Assembly (NCBI GenBank): GCA_037445735.1
Contig: JBBIJY010000018.1
Span: 1-58,887 of the forward strand
Source of the DNA: Armatimonadota bacterium
GTDB lineage: Bacteria; Armatimonadota; Fimbriimonadia; Fimbriimonadales; GBS-DC
Length of the DNA: 58,887 bases
Direction of reading: 5' to 3'
Shown here: positions 3,326-56,142 of the stretch, piece by piece
Layout: each line of letters begins with the position of its first letter
Numbering within the stretch: position 1 is the stretch's first letter
Notes under the pieces: generated by a model
Database searches by the model: none
The model's input: only the letters and a program-made list of their open reading frames with translations
Told to the model about the DNA's origin: nothing
Translations under genes and position numbers: made by a program

Positions 3326-4413
3326 GAGTGGGCATTCTGGGCGGTGGACAGCTGGGACGCATGCTGGCGCTGGCGGGCTATCCGCTGGGCATCACCTGTG
3401 AGGTGTTGGATCCTGCACCCGACGCATGCGCAGGTCAGGTCGCACCCCATCGCTGCGCACCCTTTGATGACCTGCATGCGCTGGCGGCGTTCGCCGACGG
3501 CAAGCGGTGCATCACCTATGAGTTCGAGAATGTGCCTCCCCAAGCCGCTGAGTGGCTGGCGATGCGCCTGCCTGTGCGACCGACCCCGCGCGCACTGGCG
3601 ATTTTTCAGGATCGGCTGACCGAGAGGGAGTTCCTGCGTTCGCTGGGCATTCCCGTGCCCGCCTTCGCCCCGATTGAGCCGAGTGAGCCAGAGCGTGCGC
3701 TTCAGCAGGTGGGGCTGCCTGCCATCATCAAAACGCGCCGATTCGGCTACGACGGCAAAGGTCAATGGCGCATCGACACCGAAGAGCAGTACCTGCGCAT
3801 CGTGCGTCAGCAGTCTCAACCGCTGCTGATGGAGGCGTTCGTCGCTTTTGAGACCGAGCTGTCGATCATCGGCGTGCGTTCGCTGCAGGGCGAAGTGGCA
3901 TGCTATCCGCTGATTGAGAACATTCACGGAGGCGGCATTTTGCGCTATTCGTTCGCGCCCGCCCGCGTGGACACAAGCCGCTTGCAGCCTGTGGCGGAGC
4001 GGTTCATCGCGACCCTGTTCGATGTGCTGGACTATGTGGGCGTGCTGACCATCGAGCTGTTTCTGGTGGGAGGACGCCTGCTGGTGAACGAGGTCGCGCC
4101 GCGCGTGCATAACAGCGGGCACTGGACAATTGAGGGCGCGGAAACGAGCCAGTTTGAGAATCACCTGCGGGCGATTCTGGGCTGGCCGCTGGGCAGCACC
4201 ACCCCGCGCGGCTACTGCCTGATGGCAAACCTCATTGGTGAGCTGCCCGACCCCCAATCGGTATTGACCATCCCGAACGCGCATCTGCATCTTTACGGCA
4301 AGCAACCGCACGCAGGCAGAAAGTTGGGACACATCACCCTGCGACACGACACCCCCGAAGAGCGCATGCAGGGCTTCGAACAGCTGCAGGCGGTTGTTCC
4401 GCTGCAGGGTTGA
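3322..4413 (+). CDS. purK: N5-carboxyaminoimidazole ribonucleotide synthase
   Basis: [44 protein letters not shown]; overlaps purE stop. Confidence 0.97.
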
Positions 4414-4439
4414 CTTACCGCACGGGTATCAGGTAAACT
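4410..4439 (+). promoter_or_regulatory. Putative sigma70-type promoter for G5/3D gene
   Basis: TTGACT-18 nt-TAAACT; SD GGGAGG before ATG 4491. Confidence 0.45.
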
Positions 4440-4490
4440 GGGCTGGTCAATCGGCGAGACCGTTCACGGTTTCGCAAAGGGAGGTGACGA

Positions 4491-10881: not shown

Positions 10882-10991
10882 ATAGACCAGCGTAGCAGAA
10901 TACAAAGAAGTGGGAGGCAGACCATGCGACGGCTGACGATGGATGGTCACAGTGGCTTTGTAAGAATCCTCACAACCCGCTTCAATCCAGC

Positions 10992-11003
10992 GGGGGGGGG
11001 GGG
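10992..11003 (+). repeat. G12 homopolymer (candidate slipped-strand switch)
   Basis: 12 consecutive G between ATG 10924 and ATG 11007. Confidence 0.9.
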
Positions 11004-11006
11004 TGG

Positions 11007-13994
11007 ATGCTGCGCCAAGGTCGATCTCGAGCTAAGTTGGTGATCTACCCGGTGGCTGCGTTGCTTCTATTGATGAGGGTAGTTGCTCAGGTGCCTGACG
11101 AAAGATTCGCTCGAATTGTGCCGGAGATCCTATCGGCTGCGGCTCAAAATGGCTCCCTTGTAAAATTTGAGAACGATAGTGTGCAGGGTATTGCGGGCGT
11201 TAACAGGGTGGTTGTGCCTGCTGATGGGCGCAGTTTAGCCTGGGGCGTAATTCGACTCACTGATAAACAGGGACAGCCCATTTCCGATGAAGTGGTCGAA
11301 ACATCGGTCAGTGAAGGCAGATTGCATATCATTGGTAGAAATCCGCTAACGGATCCTGCAGGCAATCTTGTCTTTGCTGTTCAGGCAGTTGAGGGGCGTA
11401 CTGTATCGGCAACGGTACGATTTTACTTTCCACGACTGCAAGCAGGTGGTCAAATAGACCTGCTCTTTTACACAGATTACTTTGCGCCTGCTGATGGGTG
11501 CGATGGTATACAAAGCGCATCGGTTTTCTATAGACCTGTGATTTCTGAAGGGCAACTCGAAGTATGTTTTCCATCTCAGTTCGCCGATATGTTTGGTATG
11601 GAAGTGGATTCATCGCCCTATGTGCCTGCCTTTGATTTTGAAGCAACTTTTCGCGCCACCAATCGTCCTACTGAGGCTTTCAGTGAAGTTAGTTTCTCGC
11701 TGTATAATGCTTCTTGCTGCTCTCCTCCTGGGCAATGCAGAAGATCGGTGTGTTATTGCGACGATGGTATACACGGTTATCCTGCAAGCAGTAATCTACT
11801 CTCATCGTACTTGCTTCCAAATGATGATGTTGTTGCCGAAGTGGAGTATCTGGTATATTCGCCTGGAGGGGGCACTGTTTGTTCGCAAGAGTTTACCTAC
11901 ACAGTTCGTAATCCAATATTAATTATAGAAGATCTAGAAGAGCTTTATCTTTTCGATCATCCTTATGAATCTGATTTTCGTCAACCCGCAAGGATATACA
12001 TCTCGATTGAATCGCCTCTTGTCAGGGCAGAAAGAGGATGGTGGTGGTATAATTCCGCATTCTATTTGCAAGTCATGGTACGAAATCAGCCAGAAATTAT
12101 TCCTGTTACTGTCCCCACAACACAGCCTATAGAAGTAGTGATACCTTCTATCTCTTCTGGTACGGTTAATCCAATAGAGATAAAATTGTTTAGAAATATT
12201 TCGTTAAATAACCAAATCGAAGTTGATGGAACACATGGTTATTTGAATTTGAGAGTGGACAGAATCTATGCTCTGGGTAGAGATTCCGTTACCCGCACTT
12301 TTGATTTTGAGATTACTTACACCTTAAGTCTATCGCGCCAGCTATCCACTTCGCGGGGAGCATCATCGGGTGTAGTTATTGTGCGTGATCCCGCCAACGA
12401 GGTGATATACCGCTACACGGTACCACCTCAAAAGCTTACATTAGGTTCGCATACGGTGGTGGTCAAGATTCCAGAGGATCAGATGCTTCGTTTTGGGCGA
12501 TATGTTTTTGTGCCGCACTTTATAGATGATTTGGCAGATTACTACCGCAATCGGCAACCGAAGTTGGCACGCGTAAGCGGCACACTGCATTTTGATACGC
12601 CTAACAGTCCATATGATATATTCGGCTCGGATTACCTTCGTCGTCTGCACCCTTATTACACAATATATAATATTTCAAATGATTTAAGAAATAATTTAGC
12701 CCGTCAAAGTTTCCCCACCGAAGGCGAAACATGTTTCCTTATTGCAGCAATGTCTCGCTATCTCTATGAGCCTATACCCCAGGAGCTCAACGGCGCATTG
12801 TTTGTGGGGGAAGACTACTGGCGGGATAATGGAGGTGCGCGGCGTCCCAATCCACCTTCGAATAGCCACATCGATGAATTCTTTGGTGCATTACGATACC
12901 GGGGCAGAATACCCTTCTTCACCAATAATCGCCAAGCAGAAGCACTGGGTACTGACTGGCGTTTATGGCCGGGGCCGAAACTGGAATTCCGATGGCTCAA
13001 GCTTTCACATGTCGCCAGTAATGAAGAGAGGCGGCTATATTACTGGAAATATCAGGACACTTCATGCCTCAGCCCAAGTTATGTATGGCGTTCCAGAGTG
13101 GGAACTCACTACTTTGCAGTTGCTGTAACTTCACCGTCACTGGATCACTATGTTGTTTCGGGGCCATATGTTGAGCGCAACCAGAATCGAATCATCTCCA
13201 AGCAACGGTTTGAACGGCTGCTTCGCAGTGGTCAACTGATAAGTCGGTACGCTTCGGATGGTTTTACCGCTCCGCTACGGATATCCAGCAAGCGTTCGTA
13301 TGCCGATGTGGCAACGCAGGAATACAAGCGGAGGGTGATTGAATGGGCAAGCACCTTTGTAAATGTACGCTATGAGTGGGGTGGTTGCTGGTTTGGTGGG
13401 CGTGCCCACCCCAGCCAGCGCGATAGTGGTGGCTTTGCCGGCTATGAAGGCTTTGGCATCGACTGCTCCAAACTGGTCAGCGCAGCAGCGATGATGGCGG
13501 GTCTACGCTGGGATCGGCGGAATAATATTCGCTGGTGGGATATCGGCGGTGTTCACTTTGCTGATAGGTATCCTTATACATCGGGCTGGAACGTTGCTCG
13601 CGCGTGGGCTTTCTGTTCCCACTCTTAAGATAGGTATCCTTATACATCGGGCTGGAACAGCAACGAGGAGGCGCGCCTGAACGCAGAGCCCGGCGATATC
13701 TTGGTCAAGTATGGTGCCCATGTCGCCATCATCGCACAGTTTGCACAAGTTAGGAATAAGATCAATCTGAGAACGGGTCAAGTCACGGACCGATACATCT
13801 GGGCGACAATTATTGACTCTTCTGGTAGCTATAACGGGGTGACCATCAACACTGGTTCCCATCTTACTCGCTCCCATACACGGATTTCCAGAGGTAATGA
13901 GAGGCGTTCTGATACTGTAGGAATTCTGATGGAACATTTAGATGATAGGGGAAAAACTTACACTCTGCGTCAGCTACGGCAGATTCAAAACTAA
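11007..13994 (+). pseudogene. Large secreted Ig-like + NlpC/P60 peptidase protein interrupted by a 66-bp insertion
   Basis: Signal-like N-terminus; invasin-type Ig pattern (VPADG..IRLTDKQGQPI..TDPAG); YEWGG...GIDCSKLV (Cys 13464); EPGDILVKYGAHVAII (His 13719) in the same frame after TAA 13626-13628. Confidence 0.85.
13563..13658 (+). repeat. Perfect 30-bp direct repeat flanking a 36-bp insert (repeat-spacer-repeat architecture)
   Basis: GATAGGTATCCTTATACATCGGGCTGGAAC at 13563-13592 and 13629-13658; insert GTTGCTCGCGCGTGGGCTTTCTGTTCCCACTCTTAA at 13593-13628. Confidence 0.95.
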
Positions 13995-14008
13995 GTGAGG
14001 TGAGAGCA

Positions 14009-15366
14009 ATGCGATGGACACAGCACACACGAGAAACATTCGGACAAACCGTCCCGGTGATGCTGTTGATATTGATCGGCATGCTGGCAATTGCTGCCGC
14101 CAGCTTCGGACGAAAAGCCACTGTCCAAACGGATTCCCAGCCCGTTTCCCTGTTCAAGATCACTTATGGCGAAGAGCCAACGAAACTTCGCCTGCGTTTC
14201 CCCGGCTCCCTGCGGCTCGGCGAGGAAGAGGAGGAGCCATTGTTCGGCGGTGGACCAACCACCTTTTGTGTCAGCTGGGATGGGCAGCTGTTTTATATCG
14301 CCGATCCCCTGCGCGTCTATGGCAAAGACCTGAAACCACCGCAGCCGTCTGATGATGAAGTAGAGGAAGAGAGGAATGAGGAGCTAGTCCCCTGGGTGCA
14401 GGTTTACAATCGTCAGGGGCAGTGGGTACGCACGATTAAAATCAAGTACGGTTTCCCATCCCGGATACGCGTGGACGAGCGAGGCTGGCTCTATGTGGAT
14501 GACGCTGGGCGTGGTGTGGCAGTCTACCGTCCTGACGGCGCTTATGACCAGCAGCGAACGGAGGCGATTGCGGCAGAAATCCGACGAGCAGAAACGGAGC
14601 ATCGCTTAGACCCAGAGCTTAAACCCGAGTTTTTCGAGGTTGACCGTCAGGGCAGGGTCTACTTTCTGGCTAATCAAATCGTCTCAGAAGAAGGTGAACC
14701 AAGTATCTCCAGTTGCGTTTGCTGATCGTTCACCCTGACGGTGGTTACAATCTCCTTGATTACAGTGACTACAATCAGTGTGGGATTGATCGCTATCGCG
14801 GTGACGTTATTATGGGCAACTATGACGAACCCGCTGAAGGTCAGATGGAGATTGAGTTTGTAATCTCACCCTTCGGCGAGGGGAATCGTGAGAGGCGAAA
14901 AACCATAACTCTGTTTAAGGTTGAGCCCTACAAGCGTGTTCGTCCGAACGGCGAGGTGGTGCAGAAGTTTGACTGGCAGCTGGACATTTCTGATCAGGTG
15001 CCGAATGTGTGGGATGGTTTCGTCGGTACTGAGAACCTTGCAAATCAGATGGCGATTGCCACTGACGAGGCGGGACGCCTTTATCGGGTATATACGGCGG
15101 CGCGGCGCCGCTGGGTGAGGTTAGATGACCCCGACGATCCTAATCGTGGCATGGCTTTACAGGAAGGTTTCTGGATTATTGAATTCACTTCTGATGGGCG
15201 ATACATTCGCTCGCGCGCCTCCAACCTCCGCTTGATTGGCAGCTACGGACACCAGTCGAACCTTGTCGGATCAACCACCAACCTCTGGGATGTGGACAAG
15301 CATGGTAATGTGTACTGGATGGAGTTTCATCCGCGCTATGTGGAGATCAAGATGGCGCCGCGTTAG
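14009..15366 (+). pseudogene. Secreted beta-propeller/NHL-like protein, frameshifted
   Basis: Hydrophobic signal MLLILIGMLAIAAASFG; repeated VDERGWLYV/VDRQGRVYF/TDEAGRLYR/VDKHGNVYW blade motifs across two ORFs; adding one base near 14700 joins them (EGEPKYLQLRLLIVHPDGG). Confidence 0.75.
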
Positions 15367-15464
15367 TCGTTGGGCAGGTTAGCCGTTTCTGGTTCCTGCC
15401 AATAGCGGGTATCAACGGGTATAAATGGAGCGTACTTTTCACTGGTGGAACCTGTGGAACCTGC

Positions 15465-16336
15465 ATGCGGGCGCGATGGGCACAACTCGGATGGCTACTG
15501 TTGGCTCTGTTAGCCGCTGGGCTGTTTGGGCTGCTGCCGCAAGGGTTGCCTTCGGTGCGCTGGCTGCTGATGGCGCCCTTCCGCAAACTGCAGCTCAACT
15601 CCCCGCGTGAACGGCGTTTGTAGCCTACCTCTGAGGGATTGAAACGCGATTGACAAACGATCTATTGCGCATTCGGCGAGAGGCGCAGGCGTTTCGTGCT
15701 TACGAGGCGCACGCCCGCGCGGTATTTCCCGATCCTGCCCGGATGGGCGCCTTATCGGAACAGTTCCTTAAGCGCACCTTCGCGCCGCTCTATCGGCTGC
15801 GCGCGGCAATCGCGATAGGGTTCTGTATCCTGTGGACCCTGCTGGCGATGGGGCTTGCCCTGATGATAGCGCGTCGCGTGCGCCCCGACGGATTCTGGCT
15901 CTTTGGAGCCGCACTGCTAACAGGATGGCTGGCAGCGTTTCTGTTCAGTTTCACCAGCCTGTCAGCCATCGGCACCGCTTCCCTCGCGGAAATCCGAACT
16001 GGCTTCTTTGGCGACCCTTATATTACCGCAGGGCAGGCTGAACAGGAGCGGTTTCAGAGCGCGCTGCTCAGGGCGCGAACCGATATCGCCAGCATCGGCT
16101 TCTGGTCGGGCTTGGGGCTGTTGCTGCTGATGCTGGGCATCACATATGCCCGCGCTCGAAGCCGCAAACCGCTGCTGGGTTATGAGCGGTTTCTGAAGGC
16201 GCTACCATGGGTGCTGAGCCTGATAATTCTGGTGCTGATCTATCTGTTTGCCCTCTACGCATCAGCAGAGCATGAAGCCAGCCAGCGAGTGGAGCAGCGG
16301 CTTCGTAACGAGCGGCTCCTCATGGGTGGGGTATAA
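15465..16336 (+). pseudogene. Membrane protein gene broken at a CRISPR repeat
   Basis: N-terminal piece MRARWAQLGWLLLALLAAGLFGLL... (15465-15623) stops inside the repeat; 228-aa multi-TM piece 15650-16336 lacks a good start/SD. Confidence 0.55.
15616..15645 (+). CRISPR. Solitary CRISPR repeat unit (30 bp, ATTGAAAC-ending, type I-B/III-like); no array
   Basis: GTTTGTAGCCTACCTCTGAGGGATTGAAAC: GTTT start, internal CCT/AGG palindrome, ATTGAAAC end; no second copy in the window. Confidence 0.85.
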
Positions 16337-16359
16337 TCCGCTCAAAGGAGGGTCGGACG

Positions 16360-16713
16360 ATGGTGGAACGACCTGACGAGCAGGCGACACAGGCGCAGCC
16401 AGGCGATAGGGAACAGGCGATGCAGGGCACCGATGTGCCCACCCTGCTGCAATACACGCTCCATCTCTATATTGCCGCTGCCTGGCAGATGATGGGGCTG
16501 GTGCCCGATCCCATCACGCACCAGATTCGCACCGACCTGCAACAGGCGAAAATCGCCATCGATTGCGCCGACTTTCTGGCAGGACACCTGCGACCGTTCG
16601 TCGAAGAATCGACGATGCGGGAGTATCAGCGACAGATTCGCGATTTGAAAGTGAACTATGTGGCGCGTGTCGGGGCAGCCGGCGGCTCCGATACGCCAGG
16701 CACGGAGGCGTAA
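16360..16713 (+). CDS. DUF1844 family protein
   Basis: AWQMMGLVPDPIT...DLQQAKIAID...LKVNYV; TATAAT and SD AAGGAGG upstream. Confidence 0.8.
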   Translation: MVERPDEQATQAQPGDREQAMQGTDVPTLLQYTLHLYIAAAWQMMGLVPDPITHQIRTDLQQAKIAIDCADFLAGHLRPFVEESTMREYQRQIRDLKVNYVARVGAAGGSDTPGTEA

Positions 16714-16714
16714 G

Positions 16715-17275
16715 ATGGACATCGGGACATGGGCACGCACCCTTGCGCAGGGTCTGAATCGACGCATCTTAATGACGCTGGCATCGCTGCCTGTGCGGGC
16801 GCAGTTGTGGACGCGCGACGCGCTGGCGACTGCGCGCACGCTGCCCGCCACCATCCGCGAGCAGATTCGACACTGGCGGGGACAGACACTGACTTTGCCG
16901 CTGGAGGAGCAGCGCGCGCTGCTCGCCGAGTTCTATGAGCGTTACGAGCAACTGACTGAACTCATCTGCGACGCCGCCTTCTGCGGCACAGGTGAACCGT
17001 TCCAGCAGCCGTATGCGGCGCTGCGCTCCTGGCTGCAACGCGCCTATCCCCATCTCCGCCCCTACCTCTGCGCCCACCTGAACTATGACCCCAGCGACGA
17101 AGCCGTCGGACTCAAAGCGCGGGGTCAGCCGACCGACGCTTTTGAGGCGCTCTTCTGCTTCGAAACGCTGGAGGCGCTGATTCAGGCGGACGAGGGCGAC
17201 TTAATCGGGCGCATCGAGCGCACGCGCAGCGCGCTCTACCGCTACGCCGATTACATCCGACAGTGGTTGCCATGA
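16715..17275 (+). CDS. Hypothetical protein
   Basis: ORF filling the operon gap; start at ATG 16715 immediately after the upstream stop. Confidence 0.7.
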   Translation: MDIGTWARTLAQGLNRRILMTLASLPVRAQLWTRDALATARTLPATIREQIRHWRGQTLTLPLEEQRALLAEFYERYEQLTELICDAAFCGTGEPFQQPYAALRSWLQRAYPHLRPYLCAHLNYDPSDEAVGLKARGQPTDAFEALFCFETLEALIQADEGDLIGRIERTRSALYRYADYIRQWLP

Positions 17276-18531
17276 GAAGCGATGCTCGAAGTGGGCAGAC
17301 GGAACTCACGCGGCGCGAGTTCCTCCGGCAAGCCGCGCTGGGCGCCGCCGTGTTCAGCTTCGGCATCCTGACCGCCCGCGCCAACCAGCAGGAGAAGGTG
17401 CGCATCGGTGTCATCGGCACGGGCGCACAGGGGCAGAACCTGCTGCGCCAGCTGATGGCAATCCCTACTGCCGAAGTGGTCGCCCTCTGCGACATCTATG
17501 CCCCTCACCGAATCAGCGCCCTCGAAATCACAGGTGGGAAAGCCCAATCTTACACCGACTATCGCGCCCTGCTGGAACGCAAGGACATCGAGGCGGTGGT
17601 GGTCGCCACGCCGCTGCACCTGCACGCGCCCATCAGCATCGACGCGATGCGCGCGGGCAAACATGTGTTCTGCGAGAAGGCGATTGCCTACTCGCTGGAG
17701 GCGGCGAAGGTGATGGCGCGCACCGCCCGCGAAACGCGCCGAATCCTGCAAATCGGGCATCAGCGCCACTACAATCCCATCTACGAGCAGGCATATCGGC
17801 TCATTCAGGAGGGCGCAATCGGGCGTATCACCCATGTGCGGGCGCTGTGGCACCGCAACGGCAGCTGGCGCCGCGCCGTGCCCAACCCCAAATTCGAACA
17901 CCTGCTCAACTGGCGACTGTATAAAGAATATTCGCACGGGCTGCTGACCGAACTCGCCAGCCACCAGCTGGATGTGATCAACTGGTTTCTGGGCAGCTAT
18001 CCGATAGCGGTGGTCGGTACAGGCGGCATCGATTACTGGAAAGATGGGCGCGAAGTGTACGACAATGTGGAACTGCTGTACGAATACCCGAATGGGGTTA
18101 AGGTGGTCTACAGCAGCATCACGGCGAACGCCTACGACGGCTACGGCGAGTGGTTCATGGGCGATCAGGGCACGATTGTGCTGACGGAGGAGAACAAAGG
18201 GTTGCTCTTTCGGGAGCCGCGCGCGGGCAAGCTGGAGTGGGAGCAGGACGCCAGCACGCAGCAGGTGGGCGGTCGCACCGCCATCACTTTGCAGGCGCGT
18301 CCGACCCGCCGCGCCCAAACCGCCAGCGAGCAACTCAACTACGGCGCCAACCGCAACGCCTACTACCTGGAACTGGAACATTTCTGCCAGTGCGTGCGCA
18401 CGGGCGAGACTCCCCGCTGCACGCCCAGAGAAGCCATTCCCGCGCTCGCGACCGTGCTGATCGCCGAAGAAGCCATCGCCACCGGCACCAGAAAGCAGTT
18501 CACGCCCGACATGTTCACAGATGGGTTATAA
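17272..18531 (+). CDS. Tat-exported Gfo/Idh/MocA oxidoreductase
   Basis: TRREFL Tat motif, IGVIGTGAQG, ATPLHLH, GKHVFCEK. Confidence 0.92.
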   Translation: MRSDARSGQTELTRREFLRQAALGAAVFSFGILTARANQQEKVRIGVIGTGAQGQNLLRQLMAIPTAEVVALCDIYAPHRISALEITGGKAQSYTDYRALLERKDIEAVVVATPLHLHAPISIDAMRAGKHVFCEKAIAYSLEAAKVMARTARETRRILQIGHQRHYNPIYEQAYRLIQEGAIGRITHVRALWHRNGSWRRAVPNPKFEHLLNWRLYKEYSHGLLTELASHQLDVINWFLGSYPIAVVGTGGIDYWKDGREVYDNVELLYEYPNGVKVVYSSITANAYDGYGEWFMGDQGTIVLTEENKGLLFREPRAGKLEWEQDASTQQVGGRTAITLQARPTRRAQTASEQLNYGANRNAYYLELEHFCQCVRTGETPRCTPREAIPALATVLIAEEAIATGTRKQFTPDMFTDGL

Positions 18532-32385: not shown

Positions 32386-34005
32386 GGGGGTTCGGTCGGG
32401 CATCATCGCCTGCACAATCGCAGCGAGTTCCTGCCCGTTGTGGCATTCGCGCACGGCGTCGGCAAGCGTCTGCATAAAGGCGTGATACCGCTCGTGCCAC
32501 TGGCGGTAGGCAAGCGCGATTCGGTTGCGGCTGTGGGGTGGCAGCGCGGGATAGACGGGGCGCAACTCCGCCTTGAGCAGTTCAATCTGCTCGCGATAGG
32601 GCGCCAGTGCCTGCTCCATCTCGCCCCGGAGATGATGATACTGCCGATAAAGCGCCTGATAGCGGCGAATGGCGACCCATGCCTGCTGGTCAGCGGGCGG
32701 GGTGGGCGAAGCGGGCTTGCTCTCGGAACCCTCCTGCAGGATAGCCGTCGCTGGGGTCTCGCGCTCGCGCGGTTCATGCGCCGGCTCGCCCGGCGCTGCC
32801 CGCGCTCGCTGGGCGCGTTCACGCTCATCCTGCGTGAGGCGAGCCGCCACCCAGTGCCCCATCGGTTTGGCTCGCCCCTCCAGAAAGCCCTCCAGCATCG
32901 CGCAAGCCAGCAACGGCAGCATCAGCAGCATCGTCGCCAGCATCACTAGCGAGACCCAGCCACTGGATGCGCTCGCTGAACGCGCCAGATTGACCAGCAG
33001 CAGCCACCCGGGCGCCAGCGCGAGCAAGGTCAGCAGCAGCCCGATGCCGACGCCCCACGCTGCAAGGCGCGACTTGCTGGCACTCCAGCCGAACAGGTGA
33101 TAGAGTTCGGCGACAACCGCCATCGCGCCCCATAACACGCGCGTCCACAGATATGCCAGCGCGATGCCTGTCAGCGATGCCAGCGCCGTCAGGATCGGCT
33201 CACGGATGGGTTGACCGGGCACAACCAGCCCCACAATCAGCGCGAGCATCAGCCCCAGCCCCGCGCCCGCGACCACGATTAGCGCCCACCACAGGGCTGG
33301 GGGAACCAGCCGTCCCTGATAGTGCGGCAGGTTCTGCTCATGAATCACTTCCGAGGGGGTCAGCGGGGGCGGTTCAGGCGGTTGCACGATGGACAGTGCG
33401 GGCAGGTTCGGCTCGGTTCGGGGCGCGGGCGGCAGTGTCGCACCCGCCCCGGCAGGGCTGGCGCTGCTCATGGGCGATTGAGTGGGGCTATTCGCGGTGA
33501 ACGCCTCCTCGCTCAGCGGGTCGCCGCGCAGGTTGATGCCCGCCTGCGCCGCCTGCTCGTAAGCCTCGCGCCACGCCCTGTACAGCTCCTCCCGCAGGGC
33601 GTCGAGTTCGGGTTGCCATCGCTGGCGGATGGGTTCCATCTGCTGCTCGATGGCGCGAATCTGCTCGCGGAGGATGTCGTTGCGCCCCTCCGATTCCGCC
33701 CGCTCCTGCACAAAGCGTGCCTCCTCCTGCTCGCGTATCTGCCGATAACGCTGATAGGCGACACGAATCTCCTCATAGAGGGAGATGAGCAGGTTCGCCT
33801 TCGCCAGATTGACCTGCTTGATCTGTTCAATCAGCGGTTTCCAGCCGCTCTGCTCATACGGCACATCCTCAAAAACGGGTTCACGCAGCCACCCCTCCTG
33901 CTCGTACCAGGGCGTGCCGTCGCTGCCCGCCGCCGTCTGATGAGGCAGGTTGAACATAACAGACCACTCCACCCGCATGATACCCGCCTCAGGGTGTGCA
34001 TGCAT
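32383..34005 (-). CDS. Hypothetical membrane protein (coiled coils flanking ~4 TM helices)
   Basis: 540-aa ORF abutting the upstream gene; exact start uncertain. Confidence 0.75.
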   Translation of the reverse strand: MHAHPEAGIMRVEWSVMFNLPHQTAAGSDGTPWYEQEGWLREPVFEDVPYEQSGWKPLIEQIKQVNLAKANLLISLYEEIRVAYQRYRQIREQEEARFVQERAESEGRNDILREQIRAIEQQMEPIRQRWQPELDALREELYRAWREAYEQAAQAGINLRGDPLSEEAFTANSPTQSPMSSASPAGAGATLPPAPRTEPNLPALSIVQPPEPPPLTPSEVIHEQNLPHYQGRLVPPALWWALIVVAGAGLGLMLALIVGLVVPGQPIREPILTALASLTGIALAYLWTRVLWGAMAVVAELYHLFGWSASKSRLAAWGVGIGLLLTLLALAPGWLLLVNLARSASASSGWVSLVMLATMLLMLPLLACAMLEGFLEGRAKPMGHWVAARLTQDERERAQRARAAPGEPAHEPRERETPATAILQEGSESKPASPTPPADQQAWVAIRRYQALYRQYHHLRGEMEQALAPYREQIELLKAELRPVYPALPPHSRNRIALAYRQWHERYHAFMQTLADAVRECHNGQELAAIVQAMMPDRTP

Positions 34006-55949: not shown

Positions 55950-56142
55950 CCCCCCTCACCCGTACCCTCTCCCCCAGAGGGGGAGAGGAATTGTGCAGAC
56001 CCCTCCCCCAGAGGGGGAGAGGAATTGTGCAGACCCCTCCCCCAGAGGGGGAGAGGAATTGTGCAGACCCCTCCCCCAGAGGGGGAGAGGAATTGTGCAG
56101 ACCCCTCTCCCACAGCGTGGGAGAGGGGCTGGGGGTGAGGGG
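55950..56142. repeat. Palindromic element containing four tandem 34-bp units
   Basis: Unit CCCCTCCCCCAGAGGGGGAGAGGAATTGTGCAGA at ~55965, 56000, 56034, 56068; termini CCCCTCACCC / GGGTGAGGGG. Confidence 0.92.

Follow-up and report, generated by a model that had tools for sequence, protein, structure and literature searches.

The window analysed here is a single contig of 58,887 nt (C18; GenBank JBBIJY010000018.1), taken over its whole length from a 2.78-Mb metagenome-assembled draft genome of an Armatimonadota bacterium (G000; GCA_037445735.1), which consists of 59 contigs and is 99.2% complete. An open reading frame (ORF) on its forward strand, at 11007..13628, encodes a truncated protein of 873 amino acids of a large, secreted type, with a C-terminal NlpC/P60-like domain that keeps the GIDCSKLV motif with its Cys and loses the His. 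Across the end of this ORF lies the unit with which this work is concerned: a 30-mer, GATAGGTATCCTTATACATCGGGCTGGAAC, at 13563-13592 is repeated exactly at 13629-13658, and 36 nt (13593-13628) stand between the two copies. [quoted passage not shown]

The first copy of the 30-mer (13563..13592, forward strand) is coding sequence, translated as DRYPYTSGWN, with G as its first and C as its last base, and the second copy (13629..13658, same strand) is identical to it. Immediately beyond the copies the flanking bases disagree, to the left (T versus A) as well as to the right (G versus A), so that the duplication measures exactly 30 bp and the insert (13593..13628, forward strand) exactly 36 nt. The gain of 66 bp preserves the reading frame and introduces a TAA at 13626-13628, the last three nucleotides of the insert. 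Beyond the second copy, the remainder of the broken gene (13659..13994, forward strand; GDILVK...AHVAII...LRQLRQIQN*) is cut off from its 5' part by this stop codon, remains open in frame and aligns to the C-termini of the homologues. A first-pass annotation, prepared from the sequence alone, had described 30 bp of coding DNA perfectly duplicated around a 36-bp insert and an in-frame gain bringing a TAA; both observations were borne out, with 30/30 identity between the copies, boundaries fixed by the differing flanks and a downstream frame open to 13994. The identity of the two copies, together with the still-open downstream frame, suggests a recent event.

The direction of the change can be read from related proteins. 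All five homologues that span the site, at 51-77% amino-acid identity, carry one copy of the target and no insert: the uninterrupted ortholog in genome G022 (51% identity, with a syntenic downstream gene), the likewise uninterrupted proteins P0001 and P0006, and two metagenome contigs with an uninterrupted gene at 77% amino-acid identity. A single YPYT.GW segment in these homologues is followed directly by the ...ARLNA.PGDILVK segment, and the DNA alignment with the two metagenome contigs shows one clean gap at the site, sized to the 66-bp gain. The 30-mer thus belongs to the gene as native coding sequence, and it is the allele with the insertion that is derived. The search for uninterrupted alleles, which the first-pass annotation had proposed, thus succeeded at the level of homologues (5/5) and not at that of the species: no empty allele of the same species or genus was found, the same-genus genomes G001-G003 having no close ortholog and synteny with G002 starting only at 15429.

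It was considered whether the repeat-insert-repeat arrangement is an assembly artefact that exists in no real molecule. The draft is of metagenomic origin, in 59 contigs, and is tangled at its CRISPR loci, where contigs end inside arrays and the ends of one contig (C45) overlap each other and the end of another (C9); moreover, what the probable source run provides is at the level of contigs. Against this, an independent k-mer contig of that run in the Logan collection (run X1, labelled subsurface metagenome; 4434 nt, depth 15.3) is identical to the window over 12900-14300 with zero differences, the comparison being made at contig level. In addition, graph artefacts of a known kind do not create 36 unique bases between copies of a coding sequence, and the 30-mer present twice here belongs to the gene itself and is conserved in the homologues. 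We therefore regard an artefact as the most improbable of the explanations weighed here. The site was not covered in runs X2 and X3, which belong to the same study. It should be added that a run of about 12 G residues occupies 10990-11003, just upstream of the ORF start at 11007, and that the Logan contig spans approximately 10993-15426, thus ending near this G run.

The genome encodes a complete type I-B operon consisting of Cas6, Cas8b, Cas7, Cas5, Cas3, Cas4, Cas1 and Cas2, all of them as full-length ORFs; the Cas8b match has an E value of 1e-102. There is a single Cas1 and a single Cas2 in the genome, the former scoring 325 bits, and 450 bits with the Cas1b model TIGR03641 against a cut-off of 304. 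Since Cas1, Cas2 and Cas4 are all full-length and over their cut-offs, the adaptation module is intact, and the presence of these three proteins, which the first-pass annotation had proposed to confirm, is established within a complete operon.

The canonical repeat of this system, GTTTGTAGCCTACCTCTGAGGGATTGAAAC, is 30 bp long and occurs in 17 copies in the genome, the most diverged of which differ at 2 positions. Among the eight own spacers that could be read, five are 36 nt long and the remaining three measure 32, 25 and 21 nt. The relatives, five genomes represented by eight array segments, gave 119 spacers, of which 59 have a length of 36 nt, 20 of 35 nt and 22 of 37 nt, so that 101/119 fall within 35-37 nt. 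The repeat family was found in 13 of the 29 genomes of the family searched. The expected pairing of 30-bp repeats with spacers of about 36 nt thus holds, 36 nt being the modal spacer length in the host and in its relatives. The duplication at the disrupted gene accordingly has the length of the host repeat (30 bp), and the insert has the modal length of the host spacers (36 nt). A second CRISPR repeat family is present at C31:26032, with a 36-nt repeat, GTTTCAATCCCC...GGGAC, and a period of 70, in this genome with one Cas1 only.

The geometry of the unit was searched for across the genome. A listing that covered every exact direct repeat measuring 20 nt or more, at periods of 40-110, contains six rows of period 66, namely five adjacent pairs of repeats in the canonical arrays and the target site itself. 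A relaxed scan for 30-mers with up to 4 mismatches and periods of 62-70 yielded no further convincing scar in the genome, its additional matches being confined to REP-type elements, tandem repeats in coding sequence and repeats at promoters; the candidates at C3:119343 (27/30, period 65), C8:56672, C35:17979 and C2:71569 were rejected as tandem or regulatory-type repeats. There is one such scar in the assembly and no family of scars. As a separate observation, GC-rich palindromic tandem repeats of the CCCTCTCCCC...GGGGAGAGGG type, found at 55964-56126 of the window and on many contigs, are the main source of the other short direct repeats in this genome.

The insert has no second copy in its own genome. 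The best match there is a 16-nt exact identity at C10:98117 (E 0.013), which was rejected as a source and judged to be a chance match, as its flanks do not extend the identity and it lies in an unrelated ORF. No match to the insert was found among the 119 spacers of the relatives, nor in the segments of the sister genome G002 that are missing from G000. The insert would be derived from a mobile element or from unassembled DNA.

Local similarities between the insert and its surroundings bear on another explanation, in which an accident of repair or replication (slippage, template switching or end joining) produced a 30-bp duplication with a 36-nt filler and Cas1-Cas2 had no part. Read in reverse complement, the opening 6 nt of the right flank give the first 6 nt of the insert; the 7-mer CTGTTCC complements the junction of repeat and flank and falls inside the best reverse-strand alignment to the right flank; and 6/9 positions agree between the insert's final 9 nt and the 9 nt that precede the target on its left. 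However, when the insert was aligned to 200 bp of flank on either side on both strands, its best local alignment was matched or beaten by 1161 of 2000 shuffles. The short reverse-complement matches (GTTGCT and CTGTTCC), which the first-pass annotation had named as a possible sign of template switching, are consequently at chance level, and a template-switch origin was rejected on this ground. A tandem duplication of 66 bp followed by divergence was excluded as well: the 30-mers agree at 30/30 positions, whereas the insert agrees with the 36 nt left of the target at only 12/36 (own count). Furthermore, an accident of this kind predicts no equality of duplication and filler with the repeat and modal spacer lengths of the host, and we consider it improbable.

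A similarly low probability is given to an unfamiliar small mobile element, or another insertion process, that makes long target duplications and agrees with the CRISPR metrics by coincidence. Only one unit occurs in 2.78 Mb, and the insert has neither another genomic copy, nor terminal inverted repeats, nor a significant hairpin (23 of 200 shuffles fold as well as its small hairpin, so that a hairpin element was rejected). For this process, too, the correspondence of both lengths to the host repeat and modal spacer stands on the opposite side.

The target site was then compared with the canonical repeat. Without gaps, the two share 12/30 identities in the forward orientation, as had been counted by hand in the first-pass annotation, and 13/30 in reverse complement (40-43%). 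The G at position 1 and the C at position 30 of the site place a 5' G on each strand at the points of attack, a configuration present in 9.6% of the genome windows. On these counts the resemblance between site and repeat appears real but weak.

We conclude that the unit is probably a natural off-target, full-site spacer integration by Cas1-Cas2 that knocked out the gene. The proposal of the first-pass annotation that CRISPR adaptation had acted here as an insertional mutagen is supported by the geometry of the unit, the machinery of the host, the metrics of its arrays, the polarity of the change and the lack of relationship between insert and flanks. Under this reading, the type I-B integrase (Cas1-Cas2, with Cas4) would have made a complete, two-ended integration at a non-CRISPR site within a coding gene. 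With its two 3'-OH ends, a 36-nt prespacer would attack opposite strands 30 bp apart, at G1 and at the complement of C30, and gap filling would duplicate the 30 bp in between, giving target copy, 36-nt insert and target copy. By chance, the insert would have carried an in-frame TAA, through which the gene was inactivated.

Several points weigh against off-target integration. No protospacer for the insert was found in exact scans of viral, metagenome and genome contig collections, and blastn of the insert against phage and plasmid records returned chance-level partial matches only (E of at least 3). As a control, two bona fide host spacers were scanned against the viral contigs, the only collection tried for them, and both (2/2) also lacked an exact match; the silence of the viral scan therefore says little. 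The similarity of site and repeat is marginal, with 3.2% of all 30-mers of the genome reaching 13/30 on either strand. By eye, the site shows no clear equivalent of either mid-repeat motif on which the type I-B system of Haloarcula hispanica depends, and no leader-like sequence was found upstream of it, where the coding DNA resembles none of the conserved leaders. An inverted pair brackets the target (TTGCT on the left, AGCAA on the right) and the opening GTTGCT of the insert is complementary to the right flank, as described above, both being odd features. Finally, only a single event is available, and its support at run level comes from contigs of the probable source run, not from reads.

The suggestion of a nascent array found no support. 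The duplicated 30-mer ("neo-repeat") has no Cas6-type structure and folds unlike the canonical repeat, and there is one spacer only. Because a leader is lacking and the neo-repeat has neither the canonical sequence nor the canonical fold, it is improbable that the unit functions as a CRISPR array.

The nature of the disrupted domain was assessed by alignment and structure prediction. With the C-terminal 230 residues of the intact ortholog, the Pfam family PF00877 remained below threshold (15.4 bits versus a cut-off of 23). An alignment of 25 sequences nevertheless displays a pattern of Y.WGG, G.DCS, PGD and HV, in which the Cys of DCS is nearly invariant and the His invariant. The AlphaFold model of the domain has a mean predicted local distance difference test (pLDDT) value of 80, and its top Foldseek matches are NlpC/P60 peptidoglycan hydrolases, including RipB (E 6.6e-4) and the NlpC/P60 domain of 8er5 (template modelling score on target of 0.71); only one match has an E value of 0.001 or lower. 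The alignment and the predicted fold thus support an NlpC/P60-like domain, with the Pfam score below its cut-off. The insertion falls between the conserved Cys and His, and the truncated product is without the His. Of the earlier statement that an NlpC/P60 domain is split between Cys and His, the position between two conserved residues is upheld, the fold has support from the predicted structure, and the family assignment stays short of the Pfam cut-off. Judging from the truncation, the insertion would cut the domain between these residues and so inactivate the gene.

G022 has the next gene (14000-15366) as a single ORF, which in the window is interrupted by a frameshift near 14713-14725, whether as a further lesion of a two-gene cassette or through a sequence error. 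With its downstream gene split in this way, the cassette may already have been decaying before the insertion, or may be decaying now.

Approximately 2 kb downstream, about 1.9 kb from the scar, lies a solitary canonical type I-B repeat (15616..15645, forward strand). The first-pass annotation had listed a CRISPR repeat at 15616; it has the canonical 30-bp sequence, in a single copy and with no array beside it in the window. The sister species G002 matches the window with 95% identity at 15646-17833 and with 88.6% identity at 15429-15612. Between these two blocks, G002 has 817 bp of an open frame of 626 residues, in place of which the window has GGC and the repeat. The 36 nt of host gene directly 5' of the repeat ("A", 15580..15615, forward strand) are preceded by CCT and behave like a self-derived spacer or protospacer, and the G002 counterpart of the host gene directly 3' of it ("B", 15646..15681, forward strand) is preceded by CCA. 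Taken as a whole, 15580-15681 has the look of one repeat set between two self-derived spacers that run on into the gene at either end.

Three further loci of G000 show comparable replacements of sequence retained in G002. At C45:4385 (4385-4480), a repeat, 36 nt and a second repeat stand where G002 has 528 bp, and the 36-nt spacer matches inside these missing 528 bp. At C9:98028 (98028-98112), a leader and two repeats take the place of 550 bp in which lie a Uma2-type gene and the initial 7 nt of pdxT, a gene for which the repeat's end provides an in-frame TTG-AAA start. At C21:33388 (33388-33417), a leader and one repeat correspond to 784 bp in G002. Contig C45 (10,926 nt) begins and ends with the same 154 nt, and its final 55 nt reappear, as reverse complement, at the end of C9; either C45 is circular or the graph of the assembly is tangled around the CRISPR leader. 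A fifth solitary repeat, slightly degenerate, is located at C13:16042-16071, with a TTGACT...TATAGT promoter-like box, just upstream of a membrane-protein gene, and is conserved on contig C8 of G002. Being shared by both species, this unit may be an old leader-repeat remnant that now acts as promoter and 5' untranslated region.

Host DNA touching canonical repeats is preceded by CCN in six of seven cases (CCT, CCA, CCC, CCT, CCA and CCG; the seventh has GGG). With CC at a background frequency of 0.079, this enrichment has a binomial P of 1.6e-6, and the protospacer-adjacent motif (PAM) of the host system is probably CCN. The missing pieces at the replaced loci are all shorter than 1 kb and are absent from the assembly. 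Two readings of these loci are available: either they are arrays with self-derived spacers, the assembler having jumped from genome to spacer, repeat, spacer and back to genome, or the replacements are genuine and arose through array-templated repair or one-ended integration. The 55-nt overlap of contig ends hints at an assembly with k=55, under which 36-nt identities should not join, and this would favour real junctions. With either reading, the junctions indicate that the adaptation module of the population has acted on self DNA, a point that also counts in favour of off-target integration at the scar.

A broader interpretation, which we put forward tentatively and hold to be rather less likely than its negation, is that type I-B adaptation remodels its own chromosome at these four loci (15616, C45:4385, C9:98028 and C21:33388), beyond a single misfire. 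Stretches of 0.5-0.8 kb would then have been replaced, through array-templated repair of self-targeted loci or through a deleting, intramolecular one-ended integration, and the scar, close to one of them, would lie where a primed-acquisition complex engaged on self DNA might have brought the integrase.

Off-target integration of the kind proposed for the scar has precedents in experimental systems. In Escherichia coli, over-expressed type I-E Cas1-Cas2 was reported to integrate off target, giving "neo-CRISPR" units (Nivala, Shipman & Church 2018, as represented in the citing works 10.1101/148544, PMC6698737, PMC7054753 and PMC11788318). According to the first of these, a preprint, natural evidence for such events was circumstantial and concerned two species (10.1101/148544). 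As far as these citing accounts go, the unit described here agrees with the E. coli neo-CRISPRs in having a spacer-length insert, a repeat-length duplication of non-CRISPR DNA and a chromosomal site outside the arrays. It differs in that the E. coli events were obtained by laboratory over-expression of a type I-E system with 28-bp repeats and 33-nt spacers, whereas here the setting is natural, the system is of type I-B with Cas4 and metrics of 30 and 36, the host is an uncultured subsurface bacterium and a gene is inactivated.

A biochemical parallel comes from Pyrococcus furiosus, for which full-site integration by Cas1-Cas2 in vitro at non-CRISPR sites, at G/C positions 30 bp apart, was described, the preferred site being 43% identical to the repeat (PMC6698737). 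That system shares with ours a 30-bp repeat, has spacers of 36-37 nt and, in the account cited, uses paired sites 30 bp apart at G/C (PMC6698737); the site found here, with 40-43% identity and the G1/C30 pair, is comparable to its preferred site. Adaptation in P. furiosus was further reported to use a 5'-CCN PAM and to sample its own chromosome, with hotspots at CRISPR loci (PMC5737086), and the CCN signal in G000 is the same as this PAM. Unlike the present case, the P. furiosus work is plasmid biochemistry on an archaeal system, and the portion of the report drawn on here does not describe a fixed chromosomal event or a gene knockout (PMC6698737).

[quoted passage not shown] The scar resembles its product, as described there, in the exact 30-bp duplication and the single spacer-length fragment (PMC4872114), and departs from it in that the site has no leader and no clear counterparts of the motifs (PMC4872114), which points to an off-pathway event. 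What is new in our data is, with good probability, a natural example of the kind of off-target integration known from the E. coli and P. furiosus experiments.

Evidence for off-target integration in nature with a cost to fitness has been thin, to judge from the literature cited above. The present case is unusually complete, as the scar, the integrase genes and the matching array metrics all occur in one genome and uninterrupted homologues are available for comparison. If our reading is true, CRISPR adaptation is an insertional mutagen in a wild type I-B system, and the site provides a concrete natural target sequence for what the integrase recognises. Taken together with the self-derived, PAM-flanked DNA beside repeats, the scar suggests that the cost of adaptation, in autoimmunity and in mutagenesis, may be readable from environmental genomes.

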